The notes under the pieces are model-generated. The model had not been told where the DNA came from and searched no databases. It saw nothing but the letters and a program-made list of their open reading frames with translations. Positions 4,418-37,422 of a stretch of DNA of 64,000 nt are shown piece after piece. How positions within the stretch are numbered: the first letter of the stretch is position 1; each line of letters begins with the position of its first letter. Source of the stretch: an uncultured Anaerolineae bacterium (GTDB lineage: Bacteria > Chloroflexota > Anaerolineae > Aggregatilineales > Ch27); contig CAZGXI010000023.1 of NCBI GenBank assembly GCA_964529715.1, positions 130 through 64,129 on the forward strand, in the 5' to 3' direction. Both the position numbers and the translations under genes were made by a program.

Positions 4418-7210
4418 ATGCCACGACGGCTGACCTTTTTTGTTTTGTTAATCATCGTTCTTGTCATTGCGCCGGTCGAGGCACAAGAAGTAACCCAGAA
4501 TATACCGGCCTGGGTCAACGGATTCGGGCGGGCCTGGTTCCATGTGCTGTCGCCGGGGAGCGATTGGCTGGTCGTCTCTACTACGACTGGTGTATATCGC
4601 TTCGATACTTCTGACCCGGATGCTCTGCCGCTGCGCCTGGAAGGGCATACCGATACCGTGCGCAGCGCGGCGTTCAACCGGGATGGGACGCTTGCGGCCA
4701 CGACCAGCCTCGACGGGACGGTGCGGCTGTGGCGGCTTGCTGATGGCGAGGCGCTGTGGGCGGCGCGCATCGGCGGCCCGTGCTGCGACTCTATGCCGCC
4801 TACCTGGGTGGAGTTCAGTGGCGACGGCTCGCTGCTGCTAGTGTTCGCAACGGACGCTTTCAACCCGGCTCCAGTAAGCCTCTTTGCCGTCAACGCGCGC
4901 AGTGGGCAGGTTCAGGCGCTCGAAAGCGGCGTGTTTCCGAAGGTGGTTGACGACGGGCTGCTGCTGCCTGTGGTGGAAGACGGCGCGGTGGTGGTGCGCC
5001 TGCTGCGGGCCGAGGGTGACGGCTTTGCCCAAAGCGACCTCGTCACGCTGGCGGGTGTGAGCGTGTCGCCGGGGACGCAGCTTCGCCTGACCGACCATTA
5101 TGTGCTGGTGTTCTCCGAGTCGGATACGCTGGCCGCCGCCCGTCTGGACGATGGGACGATCACGCTGGAGGCCGAAGGGATTCCCTCCTGGGTATCAATC
5201 TACCACGACACGGTCTACACCGATCTTACCAACGTCTTGGTGGCGATCAACCTGGAAACGGGCGCGCGCGTGGACCTGCCCAAACAGCATTTCAGTGGAT
5301 GGATTGAGCGCGGGCAGGAATGGCTGCTCTACAGGGACCTCGCCGGCACGCTGACCGGCCTGAACCTTTCTACCCTGAGAACGACCCCTATCGCTGTGAA
5401 TCCCGTGCTGTACCAGGTGTCGGGCGACTACGTGCTGACCGCCGACGCCTCTGGAACGATACGGCTGACCGACCTGCGAGGCGGCTATAGCCGCGTGCTA
5501 CAAGGGGCGATCCTGCCGGAGGGCGCGACCCTGGCGTGGGTGCACGTGAACGGCGGCACGGTGTTCGCCGCTTACGGCAACGGCCCGACCTACGCGGGCC
5601 TGTGGGATGTCTCGAACGGCAGCGTCCTGGTGGAGCCGCAGACCTACAACAACCTCGGCCCTGACTTCATTCACGAAGGCGCCAACATGGCCATCAACGG
5701 GCGTCTGGGCGACGCGACCGGGATTCTGCTGGCCGACCTGGACACCCGGACCCTGGAATGGTTTCCGTTCGCGGAGTGGTACCGCGTCGCGCCGCTGGTG
5801 TTCGGTCCGGGAGGGCTGTACTACGAGCAGGCCCTGAGCGGTGTGGCCCTGCTCGACCTGCAAAGCGGCGAGTCGGCGGTGCTGCCGTTCGAGGGACATA
5901 CCGCGTCCATCAATGACCTGGTCTACAACCCCGACGGGACGCGCATTGCCTCGGCCAGCGAGGACGGGACCGTACGCCTGTGGGATGCGACCAGTGGGGC
6001 GCAGATTGACGTGATGCGGCCAGAAGCCGAACCGCTGCGGCTGGCCTTTACCGGGGATGAACTGTTAATCCTGATGGACGGCGGCGGTCTGAGGACCTGG
6101 GGTGGGCCACTGAGCGGTGCGGACGCTTTCGGAATGTTGCATGACATCGACGCGCGGGGATCGACCTTGGCGGCGTCTGGCGATCAGAGTGTGCAGGTGT
6201 TCGACGTGGACGGCGGCGCTTTGGCGCTGCGAACCACGCTCATGCCCAATCCCGATCTGGCCCCCGTGGATGGCTACCACGCGGTCGCGCTCGACCCCGC
6301 CGGGCGGTACATTGTCGCCGGAGGCCTCGTGGCCGATGATAAAGGGCGGCACGCGGTGGTGGACCTGTGGGATGCCGTGTCCGGCGCGTTTGTGACGCGC
6401 CTGGAAAGCGCGACGGACAACGACTGGCGGATGGACCTGAGTTTCAACGCAGATGGCTCGCAGTTGGCGCTGACAGCGTTCGCGGCGACCGTCTGGAACC
6501 TGGACGGCATCCCAGACGAACCCGTTTTCATGTCGGGGGAAATGCTTGTTTCGAGCGGGACATTCGTGGGCGACCGGCTGGCGTATTTGCTGTGGGGTCT
6601 CAACGCGAATCCGGTTCTCCTGCGCGATGCCGAGGGCGTTTATCTGCAAACGTTTTGGCGCAACGCGCACAGCAACGAGGGCGGCGGGGGTGGGCTGCCG
6701 CGCTGGCCGGTGGCGGCCCGCCCGGATGGATCGCAGATCGTTGAGGCCGAAGTTGGCGGCGCGATGACGGCCTGGAATTTGCCGCCCGTTGCCGCGCTCG
6801 AACCGTTGCCCGAACCGGCCCCAGTTTCGGTCGTGGCCTACTGCGACAAACTGGATGGCCCGCCGGATGACCTGACTGCCGCCGATTCGATCAACGTCGA
6901 GTGGAGCTGGTACGCGACCGAGCTTCCGCTGATCATCAACCACCTGCGAACTGTGACCTACGAGATCATGCTCGACGGCCAGGTGCTCAGTTCCTATCTG
7001 GCGCAACGCAGTGTTGTTCGCCGAGACCCGGTCAATGACGATCATTGGACAATCTACTATACCCTGAATGTGGGTGCGCTCGCACCGGGCGAACACACCA
7101 TCACATACCGCGCCACGTGGCGGCAGGTGATTACCGATGGTCTGGCGAGCTACGGTCCTGGCACGGTCAACCCCGAAGATTCCGGCGCGTGCCGGTTCAT
7201 GGTGCGGTAG
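4418..7210 (+). CDS. Secreted WD40/beta-propeller repeat protein
   Basis: Signal peptide (AEA-like cleavage VEA|QE). WD40 repeats GHTDTVRSAAFNRDG...VRLW and GHTASINDLVYNPDG...VRLWD. Separate beta-sandwich-like C-terminal domain. Confidence 0.85.
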   Translation: MPRRLTFFVLLIIVLVIAPVEAQEVTQNIPAWVNGFGRAWFHVLSPGSDWLVVSTTTGVYRFDTSDPDALPLRLEGHTDTVRSAAFNRDGTLAATTSLDGTVRLWRLADGEALWAARIGGPCCDSMPPTWVEFSGDGSLLLVFATDAFNPAPVSLFAVNARSGQVQALESGVFPKVVDDGLLLPVVEDGAVVVRLLRAEGDGFAQSDLVTLAGVSVSPGTQLRLTDHYVLVFSESDTLAAARLDDGTITLEAEGIPSWVSIYHDTVYTDLTNVLVAINLETGARVDLPKQHFSGWIERGQEWLLYRDLAGTLTGLNLSTLRTTPIAVNPVLYQVSGDYVLTADASGTIRLTDLRGGYSRVLQGAILPEGATLAWVHVNGGTVFAAYGNGPTYAGLWDVSNGSVLVEPQTYNNLGPDFIHEGANMAINGRLGDATGILLADLDTRTLEWFPFAEWYRVAPLVFGPGGLYYEQALSGVALLDLQSGESAVLPFEGHTASINDLVYNPDGTRIASASEDGTVRLWDATSGAQIDVMRPEAEPLRLAFTGDELLILMDGGGLRTWGGPLSGADAFGMLHDIDARGSTLAASGDQSVQVFDVDGGALALRTTLMPNPDLAPVDGYHAVALDPAGRYIVAGGLVADDKGRHAVVDLWDAVSGAFVTRLESATDNDWRMDLSFNADGSQLALTAFAATVWNLDGIPDEPVFMSGEMLVSSGTFVGDRLAYLLWGLNANPVLLRDAEGVYLQTFWRNAHSNEGGGGGLPRWPVAARPDGSQIVEAEVGGAMTAWNLPPVAALEPLPEPAPVSVVAYCDKLDGPPDDLTAADSINVEWSWYATELPLIINHLRTVTYEIMLDGQVLSSYLAQRSVVRRDPVNDDHWTIYYTLNVGALAPGEHTITYRATWRQVITDGLASYGPGTVNPEDSGACRFMVR

Positions 7211-7281
7211 ATTCCAGATGGGGGTGCGTGCAGGACATCCCGGTAGTTTGTGTCTGCCGACGCGATGTGCAGGTTGTCAAC

Positions 7282-7306
7282 GCCGGGGACTTCAGTCCCC
7301 GGCTAC
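7282..7306 (-). repeat. REP-like hairpin (GTAG + GC stem)
   Basis: GCCGGGGAC-TTCA-GTCCCCGGC perfect 9-bp stem. The minus strand begins GTAG. Confidence 0.65.
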
Positions 7307-7473
7307 GGACGTAAAGTTCACATCAGCGGATTTTGCGGACTTCGCCGGAGGGAACTCCCTGGCAACCGGTGCAGACACGGTTGTTTTTGAAACTTGCACA
7401 TTGGGCCTGCTGTATATAATGATGCTGGGAGTAACCGAAAGCGGGGGGATAGTGAACACCCTGGATTAACCGA

Positions 7474-8700
7474 ATGCGTCGTCGAACGACCTGCACATTC
7501 TCCTTCTTCGCGGCGACTTTTGTGCTTGTGGCTGCTGCCTGTCAGCACACGCCCGTCATCCCGCCGCTGCTGCAATTGCCTACGCTCACCCCGACGCCGC
7601 GCCAGGTTGCCGTCGAAGTGCGACACACGCTCCCACCTACCTGGACGCCGACGTTCACCTATACGCCCAGCAACACGCCGACCCCAACCTCGACGCCAAC
7701 CCGCACGTTCACCCCGACGCCGACCGCCTCCGACACGCCAACGGTGACACCGACCTTTACCCCGTCGCCGTCGAACACACCACGCCCGACCCTGCCTCCA
7801 CCGCCGGTAGTGCAGTCGGGACCACCCGCCGCAAACCCACAGCCTTCCGCCGGGGGCGCTGCGGGGCCGATGGTGGCATTTTCTGCCCCGCCGATGGTGC
7901 ACGACCCGAACGACCCGCGCGTGGCGCGCCTGTATGCCGTGCCGATCATCCCGACGACAAGCGGGCGTGTGCGCCAGATCGTCGCGGTGGGCCGGGGGAT
8001 GGGCAACCGGGCGAACGTGTTCTCGAAGGTGGGCGACTGCCACACGACGGCGCACGCCTTCTTCCTACCGTTTGGTGTGGGCGAGGTTGACCTGGGGCCA
8101 TATGGCTATCTGCAAGAGACCATCAATTTCTTCTCCGCCTCGCCGCGCGAGAGCGTGACCAACTCCTTTGTCAATGACAGTTTTGCTGCGTCCAGCGCCT
8201 TCAACATGGCCGCTGTGCTCGACCCGACATGGTCGAACCCCTCCTACTGCCAGGCAGGGGAGTCGCCGCTGGTGTGTGAATACCGTGTGGTGCATCCGGC
8301 GGTGGCGATTATCATGCTTGGCTCGGTGGATATGCAGATCTACGGCGCGGATCAGTTCCGCGCCTCGACGCGACAGGTGGTGCAGGAGACGATCAATCGG
8401 GGCATCGTCCCGGTGTTGACTACCTACCCCAGCAGTCCCAATTATCTGTGGGAGCAATCGCTGGATTTCAACACGATCCTGGTGGACATTGCCCAGGCGG
8501 AACAGATTCCGCTGATCAACTTCTGGCTGGCATCGCGCGCGCTGCCGGGCTACGGACTGGAAGGCGATGGCTTTCACATCTCGCAGCCGCCCACGCGCTT
8601 CATTAACTTCAACGGTGAGCAGAACCAGTACGGGCAAACGCTGCGTAATCTGCTGACCCTGCAAACGCTGGAAACCCTGCGGCGGGATGCCCTGCAATGA
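7474..8700 (+). CDS. SGNH/GDSL hydrolase-like lipoprotein with Pro/Thr stalk
   Basis: Lipobox-like VAAAC, long TPT repeats, KVGDCHT, LGSVDM, DGFH. Clear paralog of 3114..4265, sharing the RNLLTLQ C-terminus. Confidence 0.75.
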   Translation: MRRRTTCTFSFFAATFVLVAAACQHTPVIPPLLQLPTLTPTPRQVAVEVRHTLPPTWTPTFTYTPSNTPTPTSTPTRTFTPTPTASDTPTVTPTFTPSPSNTPRPTLPPPPVVQSGPPAANPQPSAGGAAGPMVAFSAPPMVHDPNDPRVARLYAVPIIPTTSGRVRQIVAVGRGMGNRANVFSKVGDCHTTAHAFFLPFGVGEVDLGPYGYLQETINFFSASPRESVTNSFVNDSFAASSAFNMAAVLDPTWSNPSYCQAGESPLVCEYRVVHPAVAIIMLGSVDMQIYGADQFRASTRQVVQETINRGIVPVLTTYPSSPNYLWEQSLDFNTILVDIAQAEQIPLINFWLASRALPGYGLEGDGFHISQPPTRFINFNGEQNQYGQTLRNLLTLQTLETLRRDALQ

Positions 8701-8868: not shown

Positions 8869-10242
8869 ATGAGCGACCTCTTTGACTACGTCCGGGAACA
8901 GCGTGCCGAGACGATCAAGCCCCTGGCGGCGCGGATGCGTCCGCGCACGTTGGAGGAATTCATCGGCCAGGAAGAGATTATCGGTACAGGGCGGTTGCTG
9001 CGCCGCGCCATCGAGGCCGACCAGCTCTCTTCGATCATCCTGTGGGGTCCGCCGGGCACAGGCAAGACCGCTCTGGCAAATGTGATCGCCAACACCACGC
9101 GCCGCCACTTTTCCACGATCAACGCCGTTACCTCTGGCATTGCGGACTTGCGCGAAGTCGTGGCCCAGGCCAAAGACCGCCTGGGCATGTACAACCAGGG
9201 CACGGTGCTGTTTATCGACGAGATTCACCGCTGGAACAAGGCGCAGCAGGACGCCCTGCTGCCGCATGTCGAGGACGGCTCGGTGGTGCTGATCGGCGCG
9301 ACGACGGAGAATCCGTTCTTCAGCCTGATCAATCCGCTGCTGTCGCGCAGCCGCGTCTTCCGCCTGACGCCGCTCTCCGACGACCACGTGCGGCTGATTG
9401 TCCGCCGTGCATTGAACGATTCTGAGCGCGGACTCGGCAATCTAAATGTTCTGCTGGAGGACGACGCGCTGGAGCATCTGGTCCACGTGGCCGGGGGCGA
9501 TGCGCGCAGCGCCCTCAACGCCCTGGAGCTGGCCGTGCAAACCACACCGCCGGACGCGCTGGGCGTCATCCGCATCGATCTGGCCGTTGCGCAGGAGAGC
9601 ATTCAGCAGCGGGCGGTGCGCTATGACCGGGGCGAGGACGAGCACTACGACACGATCAGCGCCTTTATTAAGTCGGTGCGCGGCTCCGACCCCGACGCGG
9701 CGCTGTATTGGATGGCGAAGATGATCCACGCCGGCGAAGACCCGCGCTTCATCCTGCGGCGGATGTTCATTCTGGCGAGCGAGGACATCGGGCTGGCCGA
9801 CCCGCGCGCGATCACGGTGGTGGCGTCGGCGGCGCAGGCGTTCGAGTGGGTGGGGATGCCGGAGGGGACGTACTTCCTCTCGGAGGCGTGCCTGTATCTC
9901 GCTACCGCGCCCAAGAGCAACAGCGCCGGGGCGATCTGGAAGGCGCTGGCGCGCATCGAGAGCGAGGGCGCGGGCGAAGTGCCGCCTTATCTGCGCGACA
10001 AGTCGGATACGCTGCGCGGCGCCGCCCAGGCGCGTTACCGGGAGACGATGGGCGACATGGGCGCGTACCAGTACCCGCACGACTTCCCCGGCGGATGGGT
10101 AGCGCAGAAGTACCTGCCGCTGGACATGGAGCCGCCCGGCTGGTATCAGCCGAAGGACATCGGGTACGAAAAGGAAGTCAAGGAACGGATGGAGCGAATC
10201 AGGACGGCACTTCAGACGACTCACAGGGGCGAGGGCAGATGA
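8869..10242 (+). CDS. rarA: Replication-associated recombination protein A (MgsA/RarA AAA+ ATPase)
   Basis: PLAARMRPRTLEEFIGQ, Walker A GPPGTGKT, Walker B LFIDEIHR, GATTENP, HYDTISAFIKSVRGSDPDAALYW. Confidence 0.97.
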   Translation: MSDLFDYVREQRAETIKPLAARMRPRTLEEFIGQEEIIGTGRLLRRAIEADQLSSIILWGPPGTGKTALANVIANTTRRHFSTINAVTSGIADLREVVAQAKDRLGMYNQGTVLFIDEIHRWNKAQQDALLPHVEDGSVVLIGATTENPFFSLINPLLSRSRVFRLTPLSDDHVRLIVRRALNDSERGLGNLNVLLEDDALEHLVHVAGGDARSALNALELAVQTTPPDALGVIRIDLAVAQESIQQRAVRYDRGEDEHYDTISAFIKSVRGSDPDAALYWMAKMIHAGEDPRFILRRMFILASEDIGLADPRAITVVASAAQAFEWVGMPEGTYFLSEACLYLATAPKSNSAGAIWKALARIESEGAGEVPPYLRDKSDTLRGAAQARYRETMGDMGAYQYPHDFPGGWVAQKYLPLDMEPPGWYQPKDIGYEKEVKERMERIRTALQTTHRGEGR

Positions 10243-10390
10243 CCGAGAAATCGCGGCGGTCCAGCGTCAGGATGCGCCTGACGCCTGCGCGCTCAGCAAT
10301 GGCGGTGATGGCCGCGTCCACGAGGTCGCGGCGCGCTTCGGGATAGGACTCAATGATGTCAGCGGCGCGGTCATGGCATTTCCTCCTCAA
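10199..10390 (-). pseudogene. C-terminal remnant of a PIN-domain (VapC-like) toxin
   Basis: RAADIIESY..RDLVDAAITAIAER..RILTLDRRDFSVICPRPC matches the C-terminal half of PIN toxins. There is no N-terminal DT/acidic strand, and the end overlaps the rarA 3' end. Confidence 0.7.
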
Positions 10391-10416
10391 CCCGTTCCTG
10401 TCTTATTTTACCACAC

Positions 10417-10752
10417 TCATCCCGCCAGAAAGCCGAAGTCCACGTAATAACAGCGCCCACCCTCGGCCCCTTCACAGGCGACCTCGCCGTGTTCCTTGAA
10501 GACGAAAACCGTCGGGTCGTGGCGCTTGAGCTTCTTTTTCAGCGTGTTCCACTGCGACCTGGTCGGCTGCGCTTCGCCTGGCTGCAAGGTGAAGTAAGCC
10601 GGGTCGAACACGGCGCGGTAGTGGCCGTCATCGTACTGGATCAGTTCGACCAGCAGGGTATCGTCGGGGTGATCTTTGGTGGTCAGGATGGCGGAAATGA
10701 AGTCGAATGCGGCCTCGAAGCTGCGCGGTTGGAAGTTGGGCAGGTCTTTCAT
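10417..10752 (-). CDS. Hypothetical protein (111 aa)
   Basis: Coding-like ORF starting MKDLPNFQ. The longer start in the ORF track runs through a REP hairpin (VGTRHAVSL). Confidence 0.7.
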   Translation of the reverse strand: MKDLPNFQPRSFEAAFDFISAILTTKDHPDDTLLVELIQYDDGHYRAVFDPAYFTLQPGEAQPTRSQWNTLKKKLKRHDPTVFVFKEHGEVACEGAEGGRCYYVDFGFLAG

Positions 10753-10778
10753 CGGGTTGGCTCCGCTGAAAAACGGTA

Positions 10779-10806
10779 GTAAGGACACGGCATGCCGTGT
10801 CCCTAC
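10779..10806 (-). repeat. REP hairpin, GTAGGGACACGGCATGCCGTGTCC type
   Basis: Minus strand GTAGGGACACGGCATGCCGTGTCCTTAC, a near-perfect palindrome with a 5' GTAG. Confidence 0.85.
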
Positions 10807-10821
10807 CAAATCGATAGAACG

Positions 10822-11475
10822 TTACCCGCTCAGGTCGATGACATGCGCCTCTTTGATGCTGCGTGCCAGGGCAAGCGGGATCGCCACCAGCGCCGACTCG
10901 TCGCGGTGATCGAGCGCCAGCGTGGTGAGCGAACAGGCGCACGGTCCGCCTCCCAGCGCCCGCAACCGCCGAGACGTGACGATGGTCAGCACCGCCGCCT
11001 CGACAACGCGCCATTCTTCCGGGCTGATGTAGGGATAGGCCAGCACGATCTGACCGTGCTTGCGGCGCATCTTGGGCACGGCCCGGTCGAGAATGCGCTT
11101 CCAACGCCAGAAGGTGAGCAGACTGTTGGCCGCATCGCGCACGGCCTCTGGTAGCGTGACCAGCCGCAGGGTCAGCACAGCCGGGCAGGCCTCGGCGTCG
11201 AGGAGCATGATTTCCGCCCGGCGGATGCCGCGCCGCCCGCTTTCGTCGGCCTGATCCGTTACGGTCACTTCTGAGAAAGCGACCTGTCGTCCGTCGTCCA
11301 GGGAAAAACACTTGAGCGACCGCGCGCCGACGAACTGCCCCCAGCCCTGGCCGCGCGGCATGGCATGGCGCCAGATGGTCTTGAGCGCCGCCTCGCCGAT
11401 GCCGTTTGTCGGCGTGGTGAACTGGTAGCCGGGCCGGCTGCCGTCTAGCACGTATTCAAGGGTGAGTGTTTGCAT
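10822..11475 (-). CDS. Hypothetical protein, possible GTPase-associated partner (GAP1-N-like)
   Basis: ATG at 11475 (MQTLTLEY). Contains a DESGRRG motif and lies directly downstream of the small GTPase on the same strand. Confidence 0.7.
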   Translation of the reverse strand: MQTLTLEYVLDGSRPGYQFTTPTNGIGEAALKTIWRHAMPRGQGWGQFVGARSLKCFSLDDGRQVAFSEVTVTDQADESGRRGIRRAEIMLLDAEACPAVLTLRLVTLPEAVRDAANSLLTFWRWKRILDRAVPKMRRKHGQIVLAYPYISPEEWRVVEAAVLTIVTSRRLRALGGGPCACSLTTLALDHRDESALVAIPLALARSIKEAHVIDLSG

Positions 11476-11482
11476 GTTCCAA

Positions 11483-11618
11483 AAGCCATCAGCCGTCAGC
11501 AATCAGCAGACAGCACTCAGCTGTCAGAGGGAGCGCCTGTCTTCAACGGGATGTCCAGGTGTTATGGTAAACCACTGTCTATTAACTGCCAATCGCCAAT
11601 TGCTAACAGCTGATCGCT
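11483..11618. repeat. Two oppositely oriented heptamer tandem arrays bracketing about 55 bp
   Basis: AAGCCAT CAGCCGT CAGCAAT CAGCAGA CAGCACT CAGCTGT (11483-11524) and AACTGCC AATCGCC AATTGCT AACAGCT GATCGCT (11584-11618). Confidence 0.8.
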
Positions 11619-12333
11619 ACAGCTTTTTCGGCTTCGGACGGATGGCGTTGAAGAAGCGGGTCATCGCCTCACTGACGCCCGCACCGGTCACGAGACTGGT
11701 CGCCGCGATCATGTAGGCATAGCCCAGCCGCTCGGACTGCGATTTGAGCCGCCGGGTTTCGTTGCGATATTCATCCAGTAGATCGCCGAGCGTCTTCTCG
11801 CTGCCCCACAGGTCGGCCTTGTTGATGACCAGCAAGAACATCTTGAGATTCTTGGCGGCAGCCGGTTCTTCGTCGATCATTTGCAACACAAAGTTGAGTG
11901 CGTCTTTGTGCTGCGGCGGATTGGTATGGTCCATCATGAAGACGATGCCGCGCGGCCTGGCGTGCCGGAACAGGTCCAGCCAGTCGGTTTCCCACATGGC
12001 GTATTCGCCGCCCACGTCCCGACCCGGCTTGAGCCGCATGTGCTGGCTGCCGATGTTCGAGCCGAAGACGGGTACGGGGTCGCCGCCCGCTGCCGTCGGT
12101 TCGGGATCAAAGTCGGCCAGGTAGGCTGTGTCGCGCCGGAGCCATTCCAGCAGCGTCGTCTTGCCGGATTGCCGGTAGCCGAGCACGATGAACGGCAGGC
12201 CTAGCACGCGGACGTAAGCGAAATCCACCAGCGCGTTGGCGCTGCCGCTGACGCTGCTGGGGATCAGGTTGTTCAATGTCCCGACAATAATGGAGATGAT
12301 GCGATCTCCCAACGTCGGCTGACCATCGGTCAT
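11617..12333 (-). CDS. Ras-superfamily small GTPase, Arf/Sar-like
   Basis: G1 GYRQSGKTT, G2 PT, G3 DVGG, GIVFMMD, G4 NKAD, G5 TS, N-terminal amphipathic segment. Confidence 0.85.
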   Translation of the reverse strand: MTDGQPTLGDRIISIIVGTLNNLIPSSVSGSANALVDFAYVRVLGLPFIVLGYRQSGKTTLLEWLRRDTAYLADFDPEPTAAGGDPVPVFGSNIGSQHMRLKPGRDVGGEYAMWETDWLDLFRHARPRGIVFMMDHTNPPQHKDALNFVLQMIDEEPAAAKNLKMFLLVINKADLWGSEKTLGDLLDEYRNETRRLKSQSERLGYAYMIAATSLVTGAGVSEAMTRFFNAIRPKPKKL

Positions 12334-12442
12334 CGGAATCCTGCCTTCACACACACGAGCTTGACCTTACCTGTGTATCTCTTCTACGCACAAGCGGCGG
12401 CGGAGTTGCTGGCAGGGCATCGGAGCTTCGCCGCCGCGATGC

Positions 12443-37035: not shown

Positions 37036-37422
37036 TTAACCCGCCGAGAGGCGTAGCGGCGTGACGGCGGTGTGATGCCCGGCGATGCTGGCCTCGACGA
37101 TGTAAAGCCCCAGTTTGGTAAAGCGCGCCTCGACATGCAGCATAAAGTCCAGGTTCTTCCCTTCCTCCACGCTGAACGGGCGGGAGGGGAGAACCTGTTC
37201 TGTTTTCTCCGGCTCGGCAGCGTGGAACAGGCGCAGGGTGAGATCGTACTGGCCTGGCGGGGCCATAATCTGTGCGAACACGGTTAGCGCAAGGTCGGTG
37301 GGAAGCTGCTGCACGGTCACGTGGCTGAACGGCTGAATGAACCAGCCGCCCGTGTTCTGATCCTGCGTGATCGAGGCGCATAGCAGCAGGGCGTAAATCT
37401 GTGGGCTTAACTGAAAGGGCAT
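37036..37422 (-). CDS. Hypothetical beta-rich protein (DUF6941-like)
   Basis: ALLLCASITQD N-terminus and F..PG.Y..E pattern. Family call is tentative. Confidence 0.65.
   Translation of the reverse strand: MPFQLSPQIYALLLCASITQDQNTGGWFIQPFSHVTVQQLPTDLALTVFAQIMAPPGQYDLTLRLFHAAEPEKTEQVLPSRPFSVEEGKNLDFMLHVEARFTKLGLYIVEASIAGHHTAVTPLRLSAG

Follow-up and report, generated by a model that had tools for sequence, protein, structure and literature searches.

We describe two adjacent genes on the minus strand of a 64,000-nucleotide stretch of DNA (the window) from an uncultured Anaerolineae bacterium of the phylum Chloroflexota (contig CAZGXI010000023.1). The first gene (11617..12333) encodes an Arf-like small GTPase of 238 amino acids, and the second (10822..11475) encodes a partner protein of 217 amino acids whose predicted structure begins with a longin domain. 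We consider the chances somewhat better than even that the pair is a two-gene operon in which a membrane-binding GTPase switch is encoded together with its cognate longin/DENN-like regulator, which would act as a GTPase-activating protein (GAP). The original prediction, made from the nucleotide sequence of the window, had depicted the locus as a membrane-associated GTPase switch with a non-roadblock regulator. Its observations are confirmed by the analyses reported below, and its interpretation is partly supported.

The Two Genes Are Conserved as a Pair

One genome per species was scanned for relatives, which were found in 130 stretches of DNA, and 80 loci were kept. Nearly all of these are labelled Anaerolineae, Aggregatilineales, Phototrophicaceae, or Chloroflexota. 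The partner gene lies downstream of the GTPase gene on the same strand in 72 of the 80 loci, with GTPase identities ranging from 54 to 75%, and the neighborhood check recommended in the original prediction therefore came out in favor of a conserved pair. The two genes are separated by a median of 20 nucleotides (60 or fewer in 53 loci), and from locus to locus the identity of one protein varies with that of the other (r = 0.77). Among the eight loci that carry no adjacent partner, three end within approximately 420 nucleotides of the GTPase gene. When all open reading frames (ORFs) from 81 loci were clustered de novo, no other conserved neighbor emerged. The next family is a response regulator present in 20 loci, and the apparent extra ORF clusters proved to be antisense shadows of the two genes.

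Homologs of both proteins were found only in metagenome bins of Anaerolineae/Chloroflexota, where their locus tags are adjacent. With 355 homologs of the GTPase, 147 of the partner, and strong motif conservation, the observation lies far beyond chance. The family is also rare, given that a family profile search of 1.84 billion representative proteins yielded only 104 clusters, 37 of them below 1e-30. Near-identical DNA is present in sludge, wastewater, and bioreactor metagenomes, and weaker traces were detected in mat and hot-spring samples.

A third homolog search, for which an alignment of remote partners served as the query, returned nine proteins. Five remote relatives of the partner, at 20-30% identity, each have a GTPase gene immediately before their own gene, either overlapping it or within approximately 60 nucleotides of it, which indicates that the pairing is older than the core family. 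The GTPases of L081, L085/L087, and L088 match the family profile, whereas that of L089 shares the motifs but scores under the profile threshold, and that of L082 is frameshifted and was recognized by its motifs only. The L082 gene (375..1048; also seen in L084 and L083) is split at a run of five T residues, and identical DNA occurs in three independent assemblies. Possible explanations are that the gene is a pseudogene, that the assemblies share a sequencing error, or that the frameshift is programmed. In L089, two uncharacterized genes precede the pair.

Some of the loci that lack an adjacent partner have other genes close to the GTPase gene. In L018, a second and shorter Arf-like GTPase (169 amino acids; Pfam Arf, 36 bits) is encoded convergently just downstream of the family GTPase (7086..7595, minus strand). 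In L038 (6357..7310) and L046 (6729..7703), the GTPase gene is followed by genes for related membrane proteins of approximately 320 amino acids, which may represent an alternative partner.

An Arf-Like GTPase with an Unusual Catalytic Center

The minus strand of the region 10400..12400 holds three consecutive ORFs: 11617..12333 (238 amino acids, ATG start), 10822..11502 (226 amino acids, TTG start), and 10417..10809. The GTPase gene runs from the ATG at 12333 to a stop codon at 11617, with a GTG at 12354 as a possible alternative upstream start, and encodes a divergent Arf/Sar/SRβ-like G domain behind a 45-residue N-terminal extension. All of the Arf/Sar-type motifs listed in the original prediction are present in the minus-strand translation. 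The P-loop (G1), GYRQSGKTT, occupies residues 52-60 (12154..12180), with G52, R54, G57, K58, and T60 invariant in the family alignment. The Pro-Thr of switch I (P79 and T80; 12094..12099) lies inside an invariant PxPTAAGG block (alignment A2). The G3/switch II motif, DVGGE (12004..12018; DVGG at residues 106-109), belongs to a stretch in which R105, D106, V107, G108, G109, and E110 are all invariant, and W114, W118, and GIVFMMD (residues 129-135) follow it. The G4 motif for guanine specificity, NKAD (11812..11823), lies within LLVINKADL (residues 166-175; N171, K172, and D174 invariant), and the G5 motif, TSL (11692..11700), begins TSLVTGAGV (residues 212-220; S213 invariant). The basic C-terminal tail that had been pointed out earlier, RPKPKKL (residues 232-238; 11620..11640), is present after a conserved FFNxIRP[KR]P sequence in which F227, F228, R232, and P233 are invariant.

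Both sequence and structure comparisons place the protein near the Arf, Sar, and SRβ families. It exceeds the Pfam cut-off for Arf (PF00025; 25.3 bits versus 22.3) and has weaker, partial Pfam matches to SRPRB and GTP_EFTU. Nothing meaningful was obtained from NCBIfam or from PADLOC, whose models gave only P-loop-level matches (best E 0.0015, residues 38-69). When 33 aligned GTPase relatives were compared with Pfam, every one matched Arf (best E 1.3e-8), 26 matched SRβ, three matched DO-GTPase2 (E >= 0.025), and one matched Ras. A search of sequences in the PDB with the family profile ranked IFT22 first (8.5e-4), followed by mini-Gα, Arf1, Sar1, SRβ, and Arl3. In the AlphaFold model, the core is confident and residues 1-36 and 70-115 are not (mean predicted local distance difference test score, pLDDT, of 68). 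Its closest structures according to Foldseek are Arl6, Arl2, Arf1, Arf6, RagC, Arl3, and SRβ.

The MglA family is defined by the loss of the conserved G3 Asp (PMC4316618). This residue is retained as the invariant D106 in the present family, and MglA appears neither among the listed PDB-sequence matches nor among the top 50 Foldseek matches. Moreover, no match to Robl_LC7, the roadblock/MglB profile, was found adjacent to the pair, as the original prediction had claimed, nor in the ten other window ORFs that were scanned, which are mostly small. MglA is also recognized by an mglB gene within four genes; here, the only conserved neighbor of the GTPase is the longin/DENN-like partner. On these grounds, we rejected an assignment to the MglA/roadblock systems, and the earlier view that the GTPase is Arf/Sar-like rather than MglA-like holds as a statement of similarity, based on profile and Foldseek rankings. 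The logic of the two systems is nonetheless alike, in that a bacterial small GTPase is encoded together with a regulator of the longin/roadblock superfamily. The partner described here differs from MglB in being monomer-sized and longin-first, with two predicted lobes, and in not being a roadblock protein.

The GTPase shares with Arf, Arl, Sar1, and SRβ proteins the DVGG and NKxD motifs, the GIxFxxD block after switch II, and an amphipathic N-terminal segment. However, it is only 16-21% identical to solved structures, is bacterial, and lacks the Gly2 needed for myristoylation. Its interswitch region is presumably about seven residues longer than that of Arf1.

Three invariant features set the family apart. 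First, R54 occupies the P-loop position of Ras Gly12, within the sequence G-Y-R-Q-x-G-K-T. Second, Glu110 directly follows DVGG at the position where Arf, Ras, and MglA carry the catalytic Gln and Sar1 and SRβ carry His. Third, the alignment and the AlphaFold model place a conserved strand (D-F-x-Y-V), absent from the Arf-type proteins, between the N-terminal segment and β1. The first two features extend to the GTPases of the remote partner relatives. A basic P-loop residue is kept in four of five (GYRHTGKT, GARACGKT, GGRQVGKT, and GWKNTGKS; L089 has GATGSGKT), and an acidic residue in switch II is kept in all five (DVPGD, DFGGD, DVSGD, DRPGE, and DHGGE). A GTPase that combines a P-loop Arg with Glu in place of Gln is chemically unusual, and is of interest for the mechanism of hydrolysis.

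A Predicted N-Terminal Membrane Anchor

The N-terminal extension includes an amphipathic segment at residues 7-24, TLGDRIISIIVGTLNNLI (12262..12315), which on the strength of its hydrophobic moment is presumed to be a membrane anchor. The segment quoted in the original prediction, LGDRIISIIVGTLNNLI, corresponds to residues 8-24 and is present in the translation. Amphipathicity was assessed from the 18-residue N-terminal window with the highest hydrophobic moment, in comparison with shuffled sequences. The window GTPase has a hydrophobic moment of 0.49 and a mean hydrophobicity of 0.71 (z 2.5 versus shuffles), and the corresponding family values are a median hydrophobic moment of 0.50, a mean hydrophobicity of 0.62, and a z of approximately 2.5. 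The property is conserved in 33 of 33 family members even though the sequence itself varies. The polar face is made of Gly, Ser, Thr, and Asn, with a net charge near zero, and AlphaFold2 predicts a helix at residues 8-17 with low confidence. From this calculated amphipathicity, we infer that the GTPase may bind membranes through its N-terminal segment.

The Partner Is Predicted to Begin with a Longin Domain

The partner gene most likely starts at the ATG at 11475 (217 amino acids, MQTLTLEY...) rather than at the TTG at 11502, because 32 of 36 homologs start at the former position (alignment A1). The two motifs that had been remarked on in this gene, Y......GY and D.SGR.G, correspond to YVLDGSRPGY and DESGRRG, and both are invariant in the 36-sequence family alignment. 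The family is compact and strongly conserved, with invariant residues in the series L, Y, GY, W..A.PRG.GW, K.F, T...D..GR.GIR, W...E, TTL, E, and P. No match to the partner was found in Pfam, NCBIfam, or PADLOC, and its family profile matched no PDB sequence even at an E value of 10. Given that sequence searches do not reveal the identity of this protein, only its predicted fold is informative.

An AlphaFold model built with 36 sequences is of high confidence (pLDDT 92; predicted template modeling score 0.89). As assigned by DSSP, the first lobe of the model (11080..11475) has the longin topology, with the order β-β-α-β-β-β and then three helices. The second lobe (10834..11049) is a small α/β domain of approximately 70 residues that carries the invariant W, E, TTL, E, and P. 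Comparison with the PDB by Foldseek ranked DENND1B in complex with Rab35 first (probability 0.99, E 1.1e-3), with a full-length alignment whose template modeling score (TM-score) on the query is 0.44, and ranked TagF of Acinetobacter baylyi second (probability 0.98). Lower matches include the Lst4 longin domain, FLCN-FNIP2, DENND10, Pseudomonas TagF (PA0076), GATOR1 (Nprl), C9orf72-SMCR8, and SEAC. Matches to PAS/LOV domains were of low probability, and we read them as the usual noise for the α/β class. Thus, at the level of the predicted fold, the partner resembles longin-first, two-lobe regulators of small GTPases, a likeness that falls short of established homology.

DENN modules have been regarded as specific to eukaryotes (PMC3521125). 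The N-terminal longin (uDENN) lobe of such a module is present in the partner model, as judged from its topology and from its longin fold matches. In the place of the central DENN α/β domain, the model has the lobe of approximately 70 residues, but the TM-score of the full-length alignment to DENND1B is low, at 0.44. The C-terminal d-DENN helical domain is absent, since no sequence remains beyond the second lobe in this 217-residue protein. The modeled longin domain also bears on the description of the partner as a non-roadblock protein. This is correct in that the protein is not a roadblock protein, but understates the relationship, because the longin fold, here predicted to open a DENN/TagF-like two-lobe module, is the sister of the roadblock fold. 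The most remote relatives (P0328, P0334, and P0336 of alignment A3) are without the GR loop discussed below and have hydrophobic, probably transmembrane, C-terminal segments.

A Candidate Arginine Finger in the Longin Lobe

The most conserved stretch of the partner is TDQADESGRRGIRR (residues 73-86 of the 217-residue protein; 11218..11259), which spans the loop between longin strands β4 and β5. In the numbering of the 226-residue ORF, these strands cover residues 73-81 and 94-102, with GRRGIRR between them. The residues T, D, G, R, G, I, and R of this stretch (D..GRRGIRR) are invariant in the core family. In the 36-sequence alignment, 20 of the 27 invariant residues of the protein fall in the longin lobe, including those of the Arg-bearing loop. 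We regard R81, the first Arg of the loop, as a candidate arginine finger, with the second invariant Arg, R85, as the alternative. R81 is kept in 28 of 35 partner sequences, down to approximately 20% identity.

This arrangement is reminiscent of known GAPs. FLCN, SMCR8, and Nprl2 each provide an arginine finger from a longin-containing subunit. According to a 2026 preprint (bioRxiv 10.64898/2026.01.05.697756), Avl9 is an Arf GAP, the arginine finger of Avl9-type DENN GAPs lies between longin β4 and β5, and monomeric DENN proteins that combine a conserved longin surface with an Arg at this location are proposed to be GAPs. Both features are predicted for the partner from the alignment and the model, and its catalytic role is putative. 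Like the DENN GAPs (Avl9, DENND6A, and Afi1) and the longin GAP complexes (FLCN-FNIP, C9orf72-SMCR8, and GATOR1), which act on Arf, Arl, and Rag proteins, it is a longin-first partner of an Arf-like GTPase with its conservation concentrated on the longin face and an Arg in the β4-β5 loop. However, it is far smaller, lacks the d-DENN lobe, and has no detectable sequence similarity to these proteins, and its GAP activity is putative.

In the mechanism that we propose, the GTPase would bind the cytoplasmic membrane in one nucleotide state by means of its N-terminal amphipathic helix, and perhaps also its basic tail, as do Arf and Sar1. The partner would use its highly conserved longin face to dock on the GTPase, and would act as a GAP by inserting or positioning the Arg of the β4-β5 loop (R81, or alternatively R85) at the nucleotide as has been proposed for Avl9-type DENN GAPs. 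The cellular process served by such a switch might be the organization of membranes or of polarity in filamentous bacteria.

Weighing the GAP Proposal Against Alternatives

Several observations count against a GTPase switch governed by a DENN-like GAP. The predicted partner fold is modestly similar to those of DENND1B and TagF (E about 1e-3, TM-score 0.44 on the query), and Pfam profiles for uDENN, DENN or related domains, TagF_N, and longin gave no match at E <= 1 with the window partner or 34 relatives. R85 is not kept in the remote partner relatives, and the switch I/interswitch/switch II region of the GTPase (residues 70-115), where the Arf toggle that couples the N terminus to the nucleotide state would be expected, is modeled with a pLDDT below 50. 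Five loci with enough flanking DNA have no partner near the GTPase gene. Contigs from runs labelled RNA-Seq cover the locus, one of them across the gene junction, but with coverage as flat as that of DNA and a library type that is no more than a guess, these contigs do not show co-transcription. Finally, the GTPase has its own P-loop Arg and carries Glu instead of Gln. Hydrolysis might thus be self-sufficient or mechanistically different, in which case the partner could be a guanine nucleotide exchange factor (GEF), an effector, or a scaffold.

The best-surviving alternative follows from this last point. Instead of a GAP, the partner could be a GEF, or else a bifunctional platform. Its two lobes would clamp the switch regions, in the manner of DENND1B on Rab35, and bring about the release of GDP, while hydrolysis would be intrinsic to the GTPase through Arg54 and Glu110. 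The best fold match is indeed a GEF in complex with its GTPase, the invariant cis Arg and acidic residue could make the GTPase self-sufficient, and invariant residues (W, E, TTL, E, and P) also occur in the second partner lobe. However, the d-DENN lobe of the GEF module is missing, and most of the invariant residues, including the Arg loop, map to the longin lobe, a proposed signature of DENN GAPs that is not conserved in DENN GEFs (bioRxiv 10.64898/2026.01.05.697756). Our main reason for preferring GAP over GEF activity is this concentration of invariant residues, together with the persistence of R81 to approximately 20% identity, and we consider the GEF alternative to be unlikely.

A further possibility is that the pair is a minimal relative of the GTPase-centered conflict (defense) systems of the GAP1-N2 type, in which a GAP1-like protein would link a GTPase that acts as a sensor to an effector. 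In the conflict systems of multicellular bacteria, Chloroflexi among them, the gene for the GAP1 protein lies downstream of that for a double GTPase (Kaur et al. 2020, PMC7159879), and the gene order and the taxonomic occurrence of the present pair are similar. The comparison of the partner with GAP1-N families that was suggested in the original prediction gave a mixed outcome when 35 family members were scanned individually against Pfam. P0183, a core member 48% identical to the window partner, matches GAP1-N2 over the longin lobe (residues 11-93) at 19.5 bits (E 0.0011; cut-off 24). In the remote member P0288, the N terminus matches GAP1-N2 (12.4 bits) and the second lobe matches GAP1-M (12 bits), in the correct order, with both scores below threshold. 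In addition, hydrophobic segments are found at the C termini of some remote partner relatives, a frequent feature of GAP1-N2 proteins, and the weak DO-GTPase2 matches noted above involve three of the 33 GTPases.

Conversely, the window partner itself matches neither GAP1-N2 nor GAP1-M in Pfam, and all of the GAP1 matches are below the Pfam thresholds. The 238-residue GTPase has a single G domain and no zinc ribbons, and no GAP1-C, FNIII protein, or effector is encoded in the conserved neighborhood; at 217 amino acids, the partner is also too short to include the C domain. PADLOC returned no match for the pair beyond the P-loop level. Moreover, the setting is of a housekeeping kind (MetH, CtaB, and RarA), with synteny in close relatives and high conservation, unlike the sporadic and fast-evolving defense islands. 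We therefore do not class the pair as a GAP1 conflict system, and assign such a role a low probability, below that of a GEF. The partner and the GAP1 proteins plausibly have a distant common origin, in which case GAP1-N2 would itself be longin-like.

It is very improbable that the two genes are mere neighbors with no functional link. This idea could draw on the five loci without an adjacent partner and on the spacer of the window (11476..11616), which at 141 nucleotides is longer than the family median and contains a sigma-70-like promoter match (11592..11564) as well as repeated GCTGA and TTGGC words. However, same-strand adjacency has been retained in 72 of 80 loci at GTPase identities of 54-75% while the rest of the neighborhood changes, and it persists at partner identities of 20-30%.

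The partner shares with TagF of the type VI secretion system a bacterial origin, a length near 220 amino acids, and the same predicted two-lobe fold class (9t0n, 6iz8, and 2qnu are among the best fold matches), but a role like that of TagF, as a repressor or accessory protein in a secretion or contractile machine that the adjacent GTPase would also serve, is the least credible explanation of all, given that no Pfam TagF (TagF_N) match was obtained and that no secretion-system genes occur in the window or the 80 related loci. Chloroflexota are not known to carry type VI secretion systems, nor is any TagF known to partner a small GTPase.

We return to the favored explanation of an Arf-like switch with a longin/DENN-like GAP. 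A more far-reaching version of it holds that the partner is a true bacterial homolog of the eukaryotic longin-DENN module, serving as an arginine-finger GAP for a co-encoded, membrane-inserting Arf-like GTPase, and that TagF and GAP1-N2/M proteins belong to the same superfamily. We offer this tentatively, as a possibility that is more likely to be wrong than right.

Limits of the Proposed Operon and Genomic Surroundings

An intrinsic-terminator hairpin with a 14-base-pair stem followed by a T run (10777..10808, minus strand) begins 14 nucleotides past the partner stop codon. It is GC-rich, has a folding energy of -22.9 kcal/mol (z -3.76), and marks the end of the putative operon. Rfam gave no match on the locus, including the spacer between the two genes. 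The original prediction had allowed for two or three genes, of which two stand (72 of 80 loci). The candidate third gene, an orphan ORF of 111 amino acids with no family match (10417..10752, minus strand), was rejected because it has counterparts in none of the 80 related loci and is separated from the pair by the terminator. It is followed by a 63-amino-acid ORF (10199..10390, minus strand) that matches a PIN domain over its C-terminal third only (E 0.0045) and runs into the 3′ end of RarA, a convergent gene. This ORF is likewise without counterparts in these loci. Taken together, the two ORFs between the partner gene and RarA have the appearance of an insertion specific to the lineage or of what is left of a decayed toxin-antitoxin system.

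The immediate neighbors of the pair are an aldo-keto reductase gene upstream and the orphan ORF downstream. The flanking MetH, CtaB, aldo-keto reductase, and RarA genes are common only to the closest seven loci. With a uniform GC content of approximately 62%, the locus is not marked as foreign. Upstream of RarA, the plus strand encodes a secreted WD40/β-propeller-like protein of 930 amino acids (4418..7210) and a protein of 408 amino acids with a Pro/Thr-rich linker and a weak GDSL-lipase match (7474..8700). Elsewhere in the window, a 128-amino-acid ORF (37036..37422, minus strand) matches DUF6941 at 26.9 bits, just under the cut-off of 27.

Implications for Small GTPase Regulation

Eukaryotes and a few bacteria (MglA/MglB) use small GTPases with longin or roadblock regulators to organize their membranes and polarity. 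The role of DENN proteins as Arf GAPs was proposed only in 2026 (bioRxiv 10.64898/2026.01.05.697756). The literature that we searched, whose coverage was incomplete, contained no description of a bacterial Arf/DENN pair or of TagF in connection with DENN, in agreement with the original prediction that the pair may be undescribed, although an earlier description is possible.

If the partner is a true homolog of the longin-DENN module and acts as a GAP, then a combination of Arf with a DENN GAP that has so far been considered an invention of eukaryotes (and, lately, of Asgard) is found in filamentous Chloroflexota as well, in the form of a free-standing operon. Such a compact operon would offer a minimal system in which to examine how a longin face and an arginine loop control an Arf-type switch. 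It would also provide a structural bridge between DENN proteins, TagF, and the uncharacterized GAP1 proteins, and would give new evidence as to which components of the trafficking toolkit are older than eukaryotes.

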